Shown here in pieces: positions 3,028 to 31,435 of a stretch of DNA of 64,000 nt (its first letter is position 1; each line of letters starts with the position of its first letter). A model generated the notes under the pieces. It was not told the origin of the DNA and made no database searches. It saw nothing but the letters and a program-made list of their open reading frames with translations. Both the position numbers and the translations under genes were made by a program. Source of the stretch: an uncultured Christensenellaceae bacterium. GTDB lineage: Bacteria > Bacillota > Clostridia > Christensenellales > SZUA-584. The stretch covers positions 859-64,858 of the forward strand of contig CAZDZY010000002.1 of NCBI GenBank assembly GCA_964510055.1, read 5' to 3'.

Positions 3028-3271
3028 TTCCTTTCTTAAAAATTATATATTTTAATTAAATTTAAGGCTCAGTTATGTTTCCGGCTTCTTGCCCGGCAAT
3101 AAATGCGTACTAAAAAAGGGCGGAAACACTAAGCTTCCCACCCTGAAAACTCGAAATCTTGAAACAGAAACTGCCAACCGAAAACCGAAAGTAAGATATT
3201 CAATTTGAAGTTATTATAATATATTGTCGGGGAAAAAACAATTAAAACTTTGTGATGATTTTCTCACTGTA

Positions 3272-23185: not shown

Positions 23186-23704
23186 TTAATAATTTACCAT
23201 CGATTTAAGTTTATTGAGCTCTTCGTCGTTTAAGTCGCAGACAGAGAACCCGCACAGCTCGTCGCTGTACGTCATGTAATACTCTATCCTTCCGTTGGTA
23301 AACCTCTCATGTACCCTTCCGCAATTATTGAATACGCATGTCAGCTTTTTGTTGTATACGGAAACTACGTACGCGCCGTCGACGTCTATATAATCGCTTT
23401 CCTTAAAGATCTTCGTGTCTATAACTATATTACCTTTGGTCTCTATGCCCTCTAATATCCTGCCCGGCTTGAGGGCGCCTTTTTCTATGAACAGAGTTAC
23501 GGTACTTATCGTCTTTTTCTCTGAGTCTATTTCGATTTCAAGCGAGTTCTGGCTGCCGCCTTTAAGCCTCCAGCAGTTAATTTCATTTGCAGTGTTGTCG
23601 GCGTCGTTAAGGACGGTTACCATCAACAGGTCTTCCGCCAGTATCTCAAACTCCACCGATACGCTTGTATTTGAAGATATTTCATAGACTTTTTGTAAAA
23701 ACAT
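23186..23704 (-). CDS. Hypothetical cytoplasmic protein
   Basis: 172 aa, no signal peptide or TM, no family recognised. Confidence 0.45.
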   Translation of the reverse strand: MFLQKVYEISSNTSVSVEFEILAEDLLMVTVLNDADNTANEINCWRLKGGSQNSLEIEIDSEKKTISTVTLFIEKGALKPGRILEGIETKGNIVIDTKIFKESDYIDVDGAYVVSVYNKKLTCVFNNCGRVHERFTNGRIEYYMTYSDELCGFSVCDLNDEELNKLKSMVNY

Positions 23705-25034: not shown

Positions 25035-25360
25035 CGTTTTCCTTTCCGGTTACAAAAAATTCATTCTATTTGATTAGAACTCTAACTATATTATATGAAT
25101 TGGCTGCTTTTGTCAATAGTCAATAACCTGAGACCCTAAGGATCAGGCGGCGGGTTGTTATGCTTGCATATTAAATGCGGAAGAAGTATAATCCAGGCAT
25201 TATATAATATTATTTTGAAAATCAGAATGGATTTGTGTCAATGCGAAATTTTTTACGTATACTGGCAAAACGGATGGCATTGCTGATTGTTATTGTAATG
25301 ATGACTGCATTTTCATTGGCATGTTCTCCGATTCCGCCGACAAACTCAGGAGGAGTAAAA

Positions 25361-26209
25361 ATGGATTTCAGTAAAGTTCTTGACGAACTTCAAAAGTATT
25401 CAATCAAAATCGACTTTGATTCTTCTGGCGATGAAGAATTGCCTGTAGGCTGTTCAAAGCTTGGAGGAAAACCGGACTTGCCTGCGGATTTTCAATGGTA
25501 TTATTTCAAAGGTGAGAGTTTCGAAGGAATTACTGAAAACCGGCCCCTGAGTTTTCTGGCCCAGATAAACTGCGGGGAAGCAAATAAGTACGATAAAGAC
25601 GGCCTTCTTCCGCCCGTTGGGATGCTGTACTTTTTCTATGAACTTTCAACCATGACATGGGGGTTTGACCCAAAAGACAGCGGGAGCGCCCGTGTTTTCT
25701 ATTATCCGGGCAACGTTTCAGACATTCGCAGAACAGAGTTCCCAAGTGACTTGGCTGATGAATATATGCTGCCTGAGATGGCCATCAGCTTTTCGCAGCA
25801 GAAAGACTGGCCTGATTTTGAAGAATTTATCGAATGGCACAACGCGGTTAGCTACGATTCGTATGAAAAGTATGATGAGATCCTGGAAAACAAAGGTAAG
25901 CATGAAGTGGAAAATATCAGCAAGTTGCTTGGATATGCCGATGTCATTCAAAATGGCATGCTGCTGGAATGTGAAGAAGTTACGAATGGAGTGTACACCG
26001 GGAGCGGCATGGAGATAGAACCTGACGAGCTGGAGAATTATGAAAAAGAATGCGTACAGTGGCAGCTTCTTTTACAGCTTGACTCCATCGAGACAAATGA
26101 TTACGAAATGCTTTGGGGTGATATGGGACGGATCTACTTTTACATACGCAGAAGCGACCTGCAGAACATGAATTTTGATAACTGTTGGTTGATCCTGCAA
26201 TGCTATTAA
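25361..26209 (+). CDS. DUF1963 / YwqG family protein
   Basis: Start at the ATG after AGGAGG. SKLGGKPDLPADFQWY, LSFLAQINC, GMLYFFY, and the C-terminal WQLLLQLDS...MWGDMGRIYFYI signature. Confidence 0.7.
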   Translation: MDFSKVLDELQKYSIKIDFDSSGDEELPVGCSKLGGKPDLPADFQWYYFKGESFEGITENRPLSFLAQINCGEANKYDKDGLLPPVGMLYFFYELSTMTWGFDPKDSGSARVFYYPGNVSDIRRTEFPSDLADEYMLPEMAISFSQQKDWPDFEEFIEWHNAVSYDSYEKYDEILENKGKHEVENISKLLGYADVIQNGMLLECEEVTNGVYTGSGMEIEPDELENYEKECVQWQLLLQLDSIETNDYEMLWGDMGRIYFYIRRSDLQNMNFDNCWLILQCY

Positions 26210-26263: not shown

Positions 26264-27043
26264 TTATCGAACATTCAGTCCGGATCTTTCTTTAAATAAG
26301 GCCTCTATCATTACAGAATATTCTTCCCTTATCGGCAATTCAAAATCAACTTTTAACTTTCGTCTCGATGCGGTTTCAGCCTCTCCGGAAACAGGGTTAA
26401 AACCATCCTTTGTATAGTCTTCCCAATAGACCCCTATCCCCCGTTTCTGCCATGAAGGGAGTTTGTCGAAATTTATCCCCCTTGAAAAAAGCAGCTCGTT
26501 TTTAAACGCGACCGCTTTGTTTTCTAGCGCTGCCGTAGCGTCTTGCACAGACACACCTTCTTTACGAAGCATCCAGTAGCAGTGGGCGTTGAGTGCGTTT
26601 CTATGCGCATCTTCCTGCCTCCATAAAAAATAGTCTTTTACCCTCTCGATGCTAGGCAACGGTACCATTCTGCAATCAAAACATGCCGTACGCCCCAGCA
26701 TTAGGCTTATCACTCCGCTCGCTTCTCCCGCAAGGATTGAATTATATTTGCGCACCTTCCGGTCAAATGCCTGCTCAGCGGGGTGAAACAGCAGCGATAT
26801 CTCATCGCTTTCCGTATACCCGTATATAACGCGGAAACCGCATGTCATCAGGTGCTTTACCGTCTCGACCATATAGTCTCTGAACTTATCGTCAAACGGA
26901 GCTTCAAACCTGCATATCTCTTTTGTGAGCCGCGTAAAGCTTCTTCCGTCTATTCGGGCAGTCATAAACAAGTCGGGCAATATGTTTTGATCAAGAGACT
27001 GCTCATACTTTCGCATTATGATGTCAAGCTCGTCAAATCTCAT
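26264..27043 (-). CDS. Thg1-like protein (tRNA-His guanylyltransferase family, 3'-5' nucleotidyltransferase)
   Basis: 259 aa. ARIDGRSFTRL, GYTESDEISLLF, FDCR, and WRQEDAHRNALN match the Thg1/TLP catalytic core as I remember it. Confidence 0.8.
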   Translation of the reverse strand: MRFDELDIIMRKYEQSLDQNILPDLFMTARIDGRSFTRLTKEICRFEAPFDDKFRDYMVETVKHLMTCGFRVIYGYTESDEISLLFHPAEQAFDRKVRKYNSILAGEASGVISLMLGRTACFDCRMVPLPSIERVKDYFLWRQEDAHRNALNAHCYWMLRKEGVSVQDATAALENKAVAFKNELLFSRGINFDKLPSWQKRGIGVYWEDYTKDGFNPVSGEAETASRRKLKVDFELPIREEYSVMIEALFKERSGLNVR

Positions 27044-27506
27044 CTTTCCATTCCTCCGTTATAAATTTACCATCCTCTATCCTCACATAATACAGCTCAT
27101 CGAACCCTTCGGCTTTATAGGGTATTTCGAGCTTGGCCGCAGTAGCGAATATCGCCGCGTCAGGTACTTTCGCTTTACCTTCCCTCATAGCATTGCGTTC
27201 CATACATTCCTTTACGGAACTCCTGAAATACACGCCGGTTACCCTATACCCCGCCTGTTTCGCCGGGATGATATACCTTGCCCTGTCCGCTGCCGCCGGG
27301 TTTGTGTTGTCCACGGCGAAAGATCTCCCCTCTTTAATGCAATTCTCGAGCAGCTGCCTTTCCTTGTTTCTCGTATGCAGTTCGTCGAGGTTTATCCTTA
27401 AATGCGTAGAGACAAGGTATTCTTTATAAAATGCGCTCTTCCCGCTCGCCTGCAGCCCTATGAAGATGACAGCGTTTTTCCGCGTTTTTAATACATCCAT
27501 CTGCAT
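27033..27506 (-). CDS. PNK-type polynucleotide 5'-kinase (P-loop, AAA_33-like)
   Basis: Walker A FIGLQASGKS. FAVDNTNPAAADRARYIIPAKQAGYRVTGVYF and EGFDELYYV parallel the PNKP/T4 Pnk kinase domain. The start is at 27506 or 27500 (the track ORF starts at 27674). The stop overlaps the Thg1-like start by 11 nt. Confidence 0.72.
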   Translation of the reverse strand: MQMDVLKTRKNAVIFIGLQASGKSAFYKEYLVSTHLRINLDELHTRNKERQLLENCIKEGRSFAVDNTNPAAADRARYIIPAKQAGYRVTGVYFRSSVKECMERNAMREGKAKVPDAAIFATAAKLEIPYKAEGFDELYYVRIEDGKFITEEWKDEI

Positions 27507-27613
27507 ACCTCTGATTTTACCAGATATAATATCAAAGCAAAATACTGTGATTATAGAAAATGAAAAAGCACCTTCGAAGAGATGCTTTTTTGTTAATATC
27601 CCCTGTATACCTG

Positions 27614-28039
27614 TTATAGATCCTGAACATTCATCTTCGCAAGCTCCGCGTCCCTTTTCCCTTTTGCCCTGCATGCTGCGTAGATCAGCAGCAATATCGC
27701 AGTCGGGATATTATACTGAAGGAAAAGAAAGATTCCCGTTAAAACCCTTGAACCTATGTCAGGCACTGGTAGATCCGGAACGCTTGTAGTAATATTTTCG
27801 ATCACTTCTTCGCCTCCCGTTTCCGTATGCCCTACTATTACAGTCTGTTCCGAGCTGGTTACGTAAAACGGCGTTACAAACGTTAAAAAGATTGCGGCGC
27901 ACAACGCAACCAGCGGCAGTATAAGACCGAGCCACTTGTTTTCTTTTCTCGACAGGAATATCTGAAGCAGTATTATCCCCGCAGCTAATACGACTATTAT
28001 AGTCCATTCTAATATAATGACCCATTCTATCGGTTTCAT
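27614..28039 (-). CDS. Hypothetical membrane protein
   Basis: 141 aa, 3-4 TMs, begins immediately after the stop of the upstream HTH gene. Confidence 0.5.
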   Translation of the reverse strand: MKPIEWVIILEWTIIVVLAAGIILLQIFLSRKENKWLGLILPLVALCAAIFLTFVTPFYVTSSEQTVIVGHTETGGEEVIENITTSVPDLPVPDIGSRVLTGIFLFLQYNIPTAILLLIYAACRAKGKRDAELAKMNVQDL

Positions 28040-28336
28040 TTAATCTGTCTCCTTCTTAGTTTTTTTATATTCCGAGATCAATATCTTAGCCGTATCAAAA
28101 TCTACCTTTTCATTTATAGCCAGCCGCTTTATAAGGCTTATATACGGCTCGTTTGCGTTGTCTTCGCTTATTTGTATCTTCTGTATCAGCCTGTCGAGGC
28201 GCAGGCGTACGGTCGGGTATGTCACATTATATTGCCGCGCCATTTCTTTCAAAGAGCCCGAAGCCATAAGAAATTTTCTTATAAAAGAAACGTCTTCGTC
28301 GTCGAGGCCCGCCATCCATTCAGGTAAGACTTCCAT
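28040..28336 (-). CDS. DUF2089-like small HTH protein
   Basis: Start after AAGGAGGG. SLKEMARQYNVTYPTVRLRLDRLIQKI is a sigma-70 region-4-like HTH. Confidence 0.5.
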   Translation of the reverse strand: MEVLPEWMAGLDDEDVSFIRKFLMASGSLKEMARQYNVTYPTVRLRLDRLIQKIQISEDNANEPYISLIKRLAINEKVDFDTAKILISEYKKTKKETD

Positions 28337-28519
28337 AGAAGCGCCCTCCTTTAATAATATTAAACATATCATTTAACTTTGTTAAAGTCAATACTAAATA
28401 TATACTCAACAATAATAATCTATATTATCGTTGAGCCGGTATGGATATTTCCCCTATTTCCAGAATAAATAAAATAAGCCGCCCGTAAAGGCGGCAGGTA
28501 TATGGCGCATTTTATGCTG

Positions 28520-29031: not shown

Positions 29032-30015
29032 ATGGAAAGACCGGATATAGATATGACCCAGGTAAGCCTGAATCCAATTGCCGCCCGGCGGCTTTCACAT
29101 ACTACCAAGAGCATTCCCATGATGGAGAGCATAACTCCCCGCTGGCTGCTCAGGTTTCTGCCGTGGGTGCCCGTCGAGGCAGGCGTTTACAGGGTGAACC
29201 GGGTAAGAAAAGCTCCGCGCGCGGAGGATATGAACGAATACGGAGAAAAACTGATAGACTCGAATTACAGGCATATAAACGAGGATGCGATTACGCAGAC
29301 GTTCGCCGATTATGAAGAAGAACCCAGGGAATACATGCTGAATCTCGTGCAGACTATACTTCGTATGAATACTAATGTTACCGATATATTCAATAAGCCT
29401 ATAGACCAGAAAAACGAGCAGATAAGGCTTGCTATTGAAGCGATGAGAGAAAAACAGGAGTGCGAACTTATAAACGACGAAGAGTTCGGGCTTATTAATA
29501 ACGTGTCGCGCGATATGAGGACCAAGGCGCGGCACGGCTCCCCCAGCCCTGACGACATGGACGACCTTTTGGCCAAGGTGTGGAAAAAACCCGCGTTCTT
29601 CCTTGCCCATCCTAAGGCTATAGCCGCTTTCGGCAGGGAATGCACCCGCCGCGGCGTGCCGCCCGTGGTAATAAACATCTACGGCTCTCCGTTCATGACA
29701 TGGAGGGGCGTTCCTCTGGTGCCGTGCGACAAACTTATGGTCGGGGGCAAGTCGTACGCAAGATCCGAAGGCGGCAGAACAAATATACTTCTGCTGCGGG
29801 TAGGCGAAAAAGAACAGGGCATAGTCGGGCTGCATCAGCCGGGCATACCCGATGAAACAAGCATACCGAGCCTGTCTTTAAAGCTTGCCTATATAGATCA
29901 AAGAGGGATCGCCTCTTACATCTTAAGCCTTTACTTTTCGATAGCAGTTCTCGCTGATGACGCTCTCGGAATGATGGAGGATGTCGAGGTGGGAAACTAT
30001 TATGATTACAGGTGA
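29032..30015 (+). CDS. Family 2A encapsulin nanocompartment shell protein
   Basis: 327 aa. ITPRWLLRFLPWVPVEAGVYRVNRV, EEPREYML, ELINDEEFGLINN, PSPDDMDDLLAKVWKKPAFFLAHPKAIAAFGRECTRRGVPP, WRGVPLVPCDK, and LLLRVGEKEQGIVGL closely track the SrpI-type family 2 shell sequence. There is no cNMP-binding insertion. Confidence 0.85.
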   Translation: MERPDIDMTQVSLNPIAARRLSHTTKSIPMMESITPRWLLRFLPWVPVEAGVYRVNRVRKAPRAEDMNEYGEKLIDSNYRHINEDAITQTFADYEEEPREYMLNLVQTILRMNTNVTDIFNKPIDQKNEQIRLAIEAMREKQECELINDEEFGLINNVSRDMRTKARHGSPSPDDMDDLLAKVWKKPAFFLAHPKAIAAFGRECTRRGVPPVVINIYGSPFMTWRGVPLVPCDKLMVGGKSYARSEGGRTNILLLRVGEKEQGIVGLHQPGIPDETSIPSLSLKLAYIDQRGIASYILSLYFSIAVLADDALGMMEDVEVGNYYDYR

Positions 30016-31435
30016 CACGGGAGACAGGGTACGCGGCACGGCAGACCGTTTATACTGGGAGGAGGAAGTTAAAACTGTCCACGACAGTTCGCTGTTGTCT
30101 TTTCCTGTTAATTTGTATGGGCCCTCCCAGGGAGCCCCCGGACCCCCCCATAGTGTTCTTGCGTGCCCGGAGCCGGCCGCTGATGATTATTACTTCTTAA
30201 GCCGCGCTCCGGAAACGAAAAGCGATCCGGGCTTTAGCATGCTGCGCAGCGATTTTCCCATACTTAACCGCCGCGTAAACGGCCGCAGGCTCGTGTGGCT
30301 CGATAACTCCGCTACGACGCAGAAACCCAACTGCGTCATCGAAGCGGTCAGCCGCTATTACCGCGAATGCAATTCGAATGTACACCGCGGCGCGCACCGG
30401 CTGGCGGCTGAGGCTACGGAGGCGTATGAGGACGCGCGCGAGAAGATGCGTATGTTCCTCGGCGCGTCGGCGAGGGAAGAGATCGTATTCGTGCGAGGCA
30501 CGACTGAGGCTATAAACTTAGCTGCGGCGAGCTGGGGCGGCCAGAACCTGCGCGAGGGCGACGAAATATTGCTTACCGAGATGGAGCACCACTCCAATAT
30601 AGTGCCGTGGCAGCTTATAGCCCAGAAAACGGGAGCTGTCATAAAAGCGGCCCCGATAAACGAGCGCGGAGAGATAGATTTGAGCGAGTATGACCGCATG
30701 TTTACTCCGCGCACTCGCATAGCCGCCGCAGCGCACGTTTCCAACGTTCTGGGGACGGTGAACCCCGTGCGGGAGATGGCGGACATAGCGCACATGTACG
30801 GGGTGCTGTTTCTCGTGGACGGCGCGCAGTCGGCGCCTCACCTGCCTATAGACGTAAAACGCATGGGAGCCGACTTCTTCGCGCTTTCCGGCCATAAGAT
30901 GTACGGCCCTACCGGCATAGGAGTACTGTACGGCAGAAAAGAGCTGTTGTCGGAAATGGCTCCGTACCAGGGCGGCGGGGGCATGATAAGAAACGTGCGT
31001 TTCGACATGACGCAGTACGCCGGCCCGCCCGATAAGTTTGAGGCCGGGACTGTAAACATTGCCGACGCGGTGGGTTTAGGCGCCGCGGCTGATTACCTCG
31101 GGGCGATAGGCATGGAAAAGATAAGCGCCCATGAGAAGGAGCTTACGCAATACCTGATGAGCGGGCTTTCCGGCGTACCGGGCATAAGGCTCATAGGCAC
31201 CGCTCCCGGCAAGATTAGCGTAGTATCGTTCATACTCGATAATATGGAGCCTGAGATGATAGCGAAGGAACTCGACCGGAGGGGAATAGCGATAAGGGCG
31301 GGGCAGCATTGCGCCCAGCCCGCGCTGCAGCATTATGGGCTTAAGAGCACGGCCCGCGCGTCCATCGGCCTGTATAATACATTTGAAGAACTGGACCTGC
31401 TTATAGATTCCGTTCGCGAACTTTCAGGCAATTGA
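30002..31435 (+). CDS. Cysteine desulfurase (SufS/class V aminotransferase) with N-terminal cargo-type extension
   Basis: The ATG at 30002 has GAGGTGGG 8 nt upstream and overlaps the shell stop (an alternative start is 29981). The ~95-aa Pro-rich extension is followed by FPILN...LDNSATTQKP...HRGAH...TEMEHHSN...SGHKMYGPTGIG...RAGQHCAQP. Confidence 0.85.
   Translation: MITGDTGDRVRGTADRLYWEEEVKTVHDSSLLSFPVNLYGPSQGAPGPPHSVLACPEPAADDYYFLSRAPETKSDPGFSMLRSDFPILNRRVNGRRLVWLDNSATTQKPNCVIEAVSRYYRECNSNVHRGAHRLAAEATEAYEDAREKMRMFLGASAREEIVFVRGTTEAINLAAASWGGQNLREGDEILLTEMEHHSNIVPWQLIAQKTGAVIKAAPINERGEIDLSEYDRMFTPRTRIAAAAHVSNVLGTVNPVREMADIAHMYGVLFLVDGAQSAPHLPIDVKRMGADFFALSGHKMYGPTGIGVLYGRKELLSEMAPYQGGGGMIRNVRFDMTQYAGPPDKFEAGTVNIADAVGLGAAADYLGAIGMEKISAHEKELTQYLMSGLSGVPGIRLIGTAPGKISVVSFILDNMEPEMIAKELDRRGIAIRAGQHCAQPALQHYGLKSTARASIGLYNTFEELDLLIDSVRELSGN

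Follow-up and report, generated by a model that had tools for sequence, protein, structure and literature searches.

A kinase gene of the polynucleotide kinase family overlapping a Thg1-like protein gene: a candidate two-gene cassette for RNA 5'-end repair in a Christensenellaceae genome

Why should a small P-loop kinase be encoded directly upstream of, and overlapping, a Thg1-like polymerase? We address this question for two genes on the minus strand of a 64,000-nucleotide stretch of DNA, called the window below (contig CAZDZY010000002.1, positions 859 to 64,858 of the forward strand, assembly GCA_964510055.1), from an uncultured Christensenellaceae bacterium. The first gene (27033..27506) encodes a stand-alone P-loop kinase that belongs to the polynucleotide kinase (PNK) family, 157 residues long when read from the ATG at 27506 and assigned to Pfam AAA_33. 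The second (26264..27043) encodes a 259-residue Thg1-like protein (TLP) of the 3'-5' nucleotidyltransferase family, with Pfam Thg1 and Thg1C domains. Read from the sequence, the kinase stop and the TLP start overlap by 11 nucleotides (27033..27043, minus strand, ATGAGATTTGA). An earlier note on this DNA had proposed that the two proteins form a module for the repair of RNA 5' ends, and both open reading frames, their overlap and the motifs that it picked out (GLQASGKS, FAVDNTNPAAADRARYIIPAKQAGYRV and EGFDELYYV in the kinase; ARIDGRSF, GYTESDEISLLF and WRQEDAHRNA in the TLP) are present as described. Our results support this interpretation through the domains of the two proteins, the conservation of their pairing and the Hen1-Pnkp and RlaP operon context in relatives, with the enzyme activities predicted from homology. 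We consider it likely that the two genes make up an RNA 5'-end repair cassette, complete in itself, that would have no need of a ligase.

Profile searches confirm that the upstream protein is a PNK-type kinase and the downstream protein a Thg1-like polymerase. The kinase matches Pfam AAA_33 above the gathering score (E = 2.2e-14). Against NCBIfam it gives partial matches to the kinase domains of PNK-3'Pase (E = 2.7e-16), PSTK and bacterial Pnkp, with scores (59, 29 and 20 bits) that fall far below the equivalog cut-offs (503, 291 and 750) because those models describe multi-domain proteins. When PDB sequences were searched with phmmer, the kinase domain of mammalian PNKP alone was matched (E = 2.7e-14); in this alignment the Walker A motifs line up, as do INLD with VNRD, DNTNP with IDNTNP and RNamR with HNnrfR. 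The Walker A motif, GxxxxGK(S/T), reads GLQASGKS (G17-S24, numbered as in the 157-residue version, like all kinase residues here), and its G, G and K show no variation in the sets of 37 and of 75 homologues. Residues G17, G22, K23, S24, D41, T45, R46, E49, D66-N67-T68-N69, R75, R104, N105 and R108 vary little or not at all among homologues, and D41, the DNTN motif and the RNxxR motif of the Arg-lid are each conserved in at least 90% of them. D41 aligns with the NRD motif of PNKP, and we take it to be the catalytic Asp that activates the 5'-OH; these roles are assigned from what is known of PNKP and T4 Pnk. The protein is a single AAA_33 domain of 155–157 residues, with no phosphatase or ligase domain and thus not in the bifunctional layout that includes a 3'-phosphatase. 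By these sequence comparisons, it is best described as a kinase-only relative of the PNKP, T4 Pnk and Pnkp equivalogs and not as their orthologue.

The alternative that survives best concerns the substrate of this kinase. It might act on a small molecule, a nucleotide or some other position in RNA, or it might serve the TLP as an NTPase or as a loader subunit and not be a polynucleotide 5'-kinase at all. AAA_33 is a broad family, databases label the protein just 'AAA family ATPase' or 'predicted kinase', it falls short of the NCBIfam equivalog cut-offs, and PSTK, gluconate kinase and PFK-2 appear among its weaker fold matches. However, the fold ranking and the active site both argue for a polynucleotide kinase. 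An AlphaFold (AF2) model built with 37 homologues in the alignment has a mean predicted local distance difference test score (pLDDT) of 92.3 and a predicted template modelling score (pTM) of 0.86, and when it was compared with the PDB using Foldseek the best 17 matches were all polynucleotide kinases (E from 1e-13 to 6e-8). These are led by the kinase domain of mouse PNKP (mPNKP) (TM 0.85, root mean square deviation 2.0 Å), followed by two Mucorales kinases (9d8a and 9drz) and the kinase domain of Clostridium thermocellum Pnkp. The first small-molecule kinase in the ranking is gluconate kinase, about seven orders of magnitude weaker (E = 2.6e-6 versus 3.6e-13). Together with PNKP as the sole sequence match in the PDB and the invariant D41, DNTN and RNxxR motifs, this ranking makes a different substrate improbable in our judgement, and it goes against the small-molecule kinase that the earlier note had itself named as a refuting outcome. 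The modelled fold is nearest to the polynucleotide kinases, not to the small-molecule kinases.

The downstream protein matches Pfam Thg1 (PF04446; E = 1.2e-28, 100 bits where the gathering score is 29.2) and Thg1C (PF14413; E = 1.5e-16, 61.1 bits against 26.3). Its nearest solved relative, by phmmer against PDB sequences, is the template-dependent TLP of Methanosarcina acetivorans (MaTLP; 5axk, E = 2.5e-35), with the human, yeast and Candida Thg1 proteins (about 1e-18) and the Bacillus thuringiensis TLP (BtTLP; 4kgk, 1e-15) more distant; none of the solved structures matched here comes from the kinase-coupled bacterial TLP clade. On this similarity ranking, which is not a tree, the window TLP belongs with the template-dependent TLP branch and not with eukaryotic Thg1. 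The metal-binding carboxylates are intact: when phmmer aligns the protein to 3otb and 5axk, D32 and S79-D80-E81 fall opposite D29 and S75-D76-E77 of human THG1. These residues and the motif WRxEDAHRNxLNAHCYWMLR reach at least 97% conservation among 71 relatives.

The pairing itself extends far beyond this genome. A scan of one genome per species yielded 80 loci with a TLP 60–74% identical to that of the window, 79 of which had enough room upstream to be evaluated. They span Clostridia (Lachnospiraceae, Oscillospiraceae and Christensenellaceae), Cyanobacteria (Chamaesiphon and Synechococcales) and Betaproteobacteria (Massilia, Duganella and Pseudoduganella), with further loci in Chloroflexota, Planctomycetota and SAR324, about six phyla in all; the nearest relatives of the window locus are metagenome-assembled genomes (MAGs) of uncultured Bacillota/Clostridia. 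In 74 of the 79 evaluable loci, the gene immediately upstream of the TLP gene, in the same orientation, encodes a kinase homologue (42–64% identity). Counting the window, the two frames overlap in 50 of 75 pairs, by 11 nucleotides in 33, by 4 in 16 and by 14 in one, and most of the pairs that do not overlap are at most 10 nucleotides apart. Thus, the co-occurrence check that the earlier note had suggested comes out in favor of the pair. The association also holds from the kinase side, where a search with three kinase homologues reached eight contigs and found a TLP downstream in every case. In keeping with a lasting association, the pairwise identities of the kinase and of the TLP co-vary (r = 0.84).

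When all open reading frames of at least 70 residues within about 6 kb were clustered across 81 neighbourhoods, the kinase and the TLP were the only genes in common. No third conserved partner emerged from this clustering, the additional genes being restricted to particular lineages (a WYL/WCX pair in about 10 loci, YqeY in 9 and RtcB in 6), and no flanking gene is common to the window and even its closest relatives. Since only these two genes are shared among the neighbourhoods, we regard the kinase–TLP pair as the functional unit, and it appears to be transferred horizontally between genomes as such. TLPs encoded on plasmids reach 45–50% identity to that of the window (Thiodictyon and Deinococcus), and those of phages are only distant (about 30%).

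In several relatives, the pair is found among other RNA-repair genes. In Erysipelotrichaceae (loci L081–L083, 1–5222), genes for Hen1, Pnkp, the kinase and the TLP follow one another on one strand and lead into RlaP (L082) or a 365-residue protein, which in L081, where it follows the TLP, is unannotated and has no Pfam match. On a plasmid of Deinococcus taeanensis (L090, 3025–7732), the pair lies 1 kb from Hen1 and two genes for nucleotidyltransferase-domain proteins, the latter two identified by annotation and not by a Pfam scan. The six loci with RtcB have it within 6 kb of the pair. The five TLPs of the same clade that lack the kinase have other RNA-end partners, in the order TLP-RlaP-RlaP at three Anaerolineae loci and PTH2-TLP at two Butyrivibrio loci. 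In the window itself, tblastn with Pnkp, Hen1, RtcB, RlaP, PTH2 and WYL queries returned nothing at E ≤ 0.01.

Some of these arrangements deserve description in their own right. In the Anaerolineae MAGs (L065, L068 and L071; for example, L071 698–3140), two tandem RlaP (PF10127) nucleotidyltransferases follow the TLP and there is no kinase within 6 kb; here a TLP of the same clade comes with a different set of partners. In the Butyrivibrio MAGs (L038 1003–4915 and L039 2577–6489), the TLP (67% identity, again with no kinase) is preceded by a 206-residue homologue of the PTH2 peptidyl-tRNA hydrolase and a gene for an XRE-type helix-turn-helix (HTH) protein, and immediately upstream of these genes is a PDC-M38 A/B candidate defence pair (an AAA_15/AAA_21 ATPase and a DUF3226 protein). 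It is possible that tRNA-targeting defence is linked to TLP repair in this arrangement. Finally, two tandem WYL (and WCX) proteins are encoded immediately downstream of the TLP in L011 (6795–8941) and about nine other Oscillospiraceae/Clostridia loci, and a WYL/WCX regulator is also found nearby in L084–L086. The tandem proteins may be ligand-sensing regulators of the cassette.

Could the pair instead belong to its immediate neighbours? The earlier note had placed it among candidate immunity-type genes of the DUF1963/YwqG kind, and on that basis it would be an immunity or counter-defence device that neutralizes one toxin encoded nearby and not a general repair system. The DUF1963 gene is real (25235–26209, plus strand; Pfam E = 1.6e-45) and lies beside the TLP gene, convergent with it; the PDC-M38 candidate defence pair adjoins a TLP of the same clade in Butyrivibrio, and distant TLPs are carried by phages. 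However, the context does not hold up as a conserved one, given that DUF1963 and every other neighbour in the window are missing from all 80 related loci. The surroundings look like ordinary chromosomal DNA (L,D-transpeptidase, nitroreductase, MarR, DUF1963, a DUF2089 regulator, an encapsulin with a cysteine desulfurase, and SigI/RsgI), and the GC content profile of the window reveals no compositional island. A PADLOC scan of the kinase, the TLP and three neighbours for known anti-phage defence systems matched no model, and published work treats DUF1963/YwqG as a TYPP domain for protein interaction (PMC4275035). We therefore think it very unlikely that the pair serves a local immunity function.

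For the cassette that we favor, the chemistry can be outlined from homology. The kinase would transfer the gamma-phosphate of an NTP onto the 5'-OH end of an RNA, the kind of end left by metal-independent ribonucleases or toxins. By analogy with characterized TLPs, the TLP would then activate the resulting 5'-monophosphate with ATP or GTP, giving App- or Gpp-RNA, and would restore the missing nucleotides one by one, working 3'-5' and templated by the opposite 3' strand. The overlapping frames point to co-translation of the two proteins in fixed proportion. Bacterial and archaeal TLPs (BtTLP and MaTLP) do repair 5'-truncated tRNA in vitro in a template-dependent manner, with a 5'-monophosphate as the starting end (PMC3061083, PMC4820378). 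Since a TLP depends on a template, the natural substrate would be a duplex in which the 5' end is recessed, and a tRNA with a shortened 5' strand in its acceptor stem is the likeliest candidate. The presence of a kinase speaks for a lesion with a 5'-OH, which would make it the product of a metal-independent endonuclease or toxin and not of RNase P or a 5'-exonuclease. Mammalian PNKP prefers recessed 5'-OH ends, a preference that would fit a recessed tRNA end as substrate. The specific substrate is nonetheless much less certain than the general model. One type of damage that the earlier note had offered as an example, cleavage by anticodon nucleases, is an unlikely target, because characterized TLPs have to copy a 3' strand that faces the lost 5' nucleotides (PMC3061083, PMC4820378) and a cut in the anticodon loop offers none.

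The least plausible alternative, that the TLP simply adds G-1 to tRNA-His during maturation and the kinase is incidental, is suggested by source annotations that name the protein 'tRNA(His) guanylyltransferase' and by its place in the Thg1 superfamily, but it is barely credible given that the TLP is closest to the template-dependent MaTLP and not to eukaryotic Thg1, that its neighbours in relatives are repair genes, that RNase P leaves a 5'-phosphate, so that a 5'-OH kinase in such close coupling would have nothing to do, and that G-1 is genome-encoded in most Bacteria, which makes its post-transcriptional addition needless (PMC3061083).

Several points nonetheless weigh against the repair cassette as we have drawn it. 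The activities of the kinase clade and the TLP clade are predicted from homology, and, according to PMC3061083, no bacterial TLP has an established substrate in vivo. The characterized bacterial enzyme, BtTLP, shares only about 29% identity with the window TLP, and at the one locus inspected no kinase gene adjoins it. Five TLPs of the same clade have no kinase within 6 kb, and the co-variation of kinase and TLP pairwise identities (r = 0.84) may partly come from shared species phylogeny. In addition, Pnkp has its own kinase domain, and the small kinase therefore looks redundant at the loci that encode Pnkp, unless it has a distinct substrate or is needed for binding to the TLP.

This last difficulty bears on a broader proposal, which we hold only tentatively and with more doubt than the cassette itself. 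The kinase-coupled TLPs form a clade whose members are 60–74% identical across phyla and distinct from BtTLP. This clade could represent a dedicated, horizontally mobile form of RNA repair by resynthesis in place of ligation, in which the kinase is an obligate partner of the TLP and is specialized for recessed 5'-OH ends in duplexes. If so, such specialization would explain why the kinase is retained beside Pnkp. Targets of such a pathway may include, for instance, the acceptor stems of tRNAs cut by secreted ribonucleases or by those of phage defence.

The local sequence offers some indications of how the pair is expressed. The true start of the kinase is probably the ATG at 27500, which would give a protein of 155 residues (27033–27500); this start is favored because an AGAGG ribosome-binding site (27512–27508) lies 7 nucleotides upstream of it and because the NCBI gene model (P0121) is 155 residues long. 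The 11-nucleotide overlap of the two frames suggests translational coupling. A consensus scan identified a terminator-like hairpin on the minus strand at 27563..27590, with an 11-bp stem followed by a T-run (CATTTTCTAT), positioned 3' of the upstream membrane-protein gene. A candidate -10 box, TATAAT (27550..27555, minus strand), can be read about 45 nucleotides ahead of the kinase start, with a weak candidate -35 box, TTCGAA, 17 nucleotides upstream that scores below the -35 threshold of the scanning tool. As the hairpin would close the upstream gene, the kinase–TLP pair may be a separate transcription unit. A check for signs of a mobile element turned up nothing notable: no Rfam element lies near the pair in a scan of the window, and searches for flanking repeats around it and for tRNA genes gave no convincing repeats and no tRNA genes.

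The remaining features of the window bear less directly on the pair. On the same strand and directly upstream of the kinase (27614–28372, minus strand) are genes for a DUF2089 HTH/SHOCT-like regulator and a membrane protein of 141 residues; the hairpin separates them from the kinase, and they are not kept beside the pair at other loci. At 29032–31435 (plus strand), a gene for an SrpI-like type 2A encapsulin shell protein (Pfam E = 4.9e-102) overlaps one for a class-V aminotransferase/cysteine desulfurase (E = 1.8e-146) that carries an N-terminal extension of about 100 residues; we take this to be the known encapsulin–cysteine-desulfurase cargo pair, here in a Clostridia-like genome. A 172-residue open reading frame between the L,D-transpeptidase and nitroreductase genes (23186–23704, minus strand) has no Pfam match. 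The sole Rfam match in the window is a Na+ riboswitch (RF03071) at 3132–3179 (minus strand), with 41.8 bits against a gathering score of 40.5.

How, then, does this locus compare with known systems? The pair had already been predicted by comparative genomics. Anantharaman, Iyer and Aravind (Biol Direct 5:43, 2010; PMC2904730) described a PNK-Thg1 operon, for bacterial Thg1 'the most persistent association', in a data set that included Clostridiales, Coprococcus and Eubacterium, and reasoned that the 5'-phosphate required by Thg1 comes from the kinase. The idea in the earlier note is thus a correct, independent rediscovery. The window pair has the same two families, order and logic as that operon, and nothing essential differs; like it, the two genes are adjacent, co-directional and conserved across distant lineages. 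Subsets of the published operons carry optional Macro-domain or RNA-ligase genes, which are absent from the window. To this earlier description our analysis adds the count of 74 out of 79 loci, the conservation of the overlap, a structural model of the kinase and the links to Hen1-Pnkp, RlaP and PTH2. Our literature search, which covered biochemical and structural papers, reviews to 2019 and preprints to 2025, returned no biochemical test of the kinase partner; the role given for TLPs there is in vitro 5'-end repair only, and the kinase partner goes unmentioned.

Among the characterized enzymes, MaTLP (5axk–5axn) and BtTLP (4kgk) share with the window TLP the Thg1 plus Thg1C architecture and the catalytic carboxylates, with MaTLP far the nearer of the two. 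At the one BtTLP locus that we inspected (L089 1321–4217, on a 235-kb plasmid of B. thuringiensis israelensis), the gene order is SLOG family protein, GIY-YIG nuclease and TLP, with no kinase, and this TLP groups with those of phages (Bacillus Herelleviridae) in a different clade from the window TLP. The kinase has the P-loop fold, Walker A motif, catalytic Asp, DNTN motif and Arg-lid in common with the kinase domains of PNKP, T4 Pnk and bacterial Pnkp. Unlike those proteins, however, the window kinase (about 155 residues) has no 3'-phosphatase, FHA or ligase domain and would therefore heal the 5' end only.

A functional parallel may be drawn with the Pnkp/Hen1 system, with which the window pair shares the logic of healing RNA ends after ribotoxin cleavage, although tblastn places neither Pnkp nor Hen1 in the window. 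Pnkp/Hen1 heals both ends, ligates them and 2'-O-methylates the junction, whereas the kinase–TLP pair, which has no ligase, would resynthesize the lost nucleotides. The coupling also has implications for the physiological role of bacterial Thg1-like proteins, as it suggests a substrate with a 5'-OH, that is, a nuclease product. Its tightness and wide distribution, together with the links to Hen1-Pnkp, RlaP and PTH2, make the pair a well-defined target for reconstitution in vitro.

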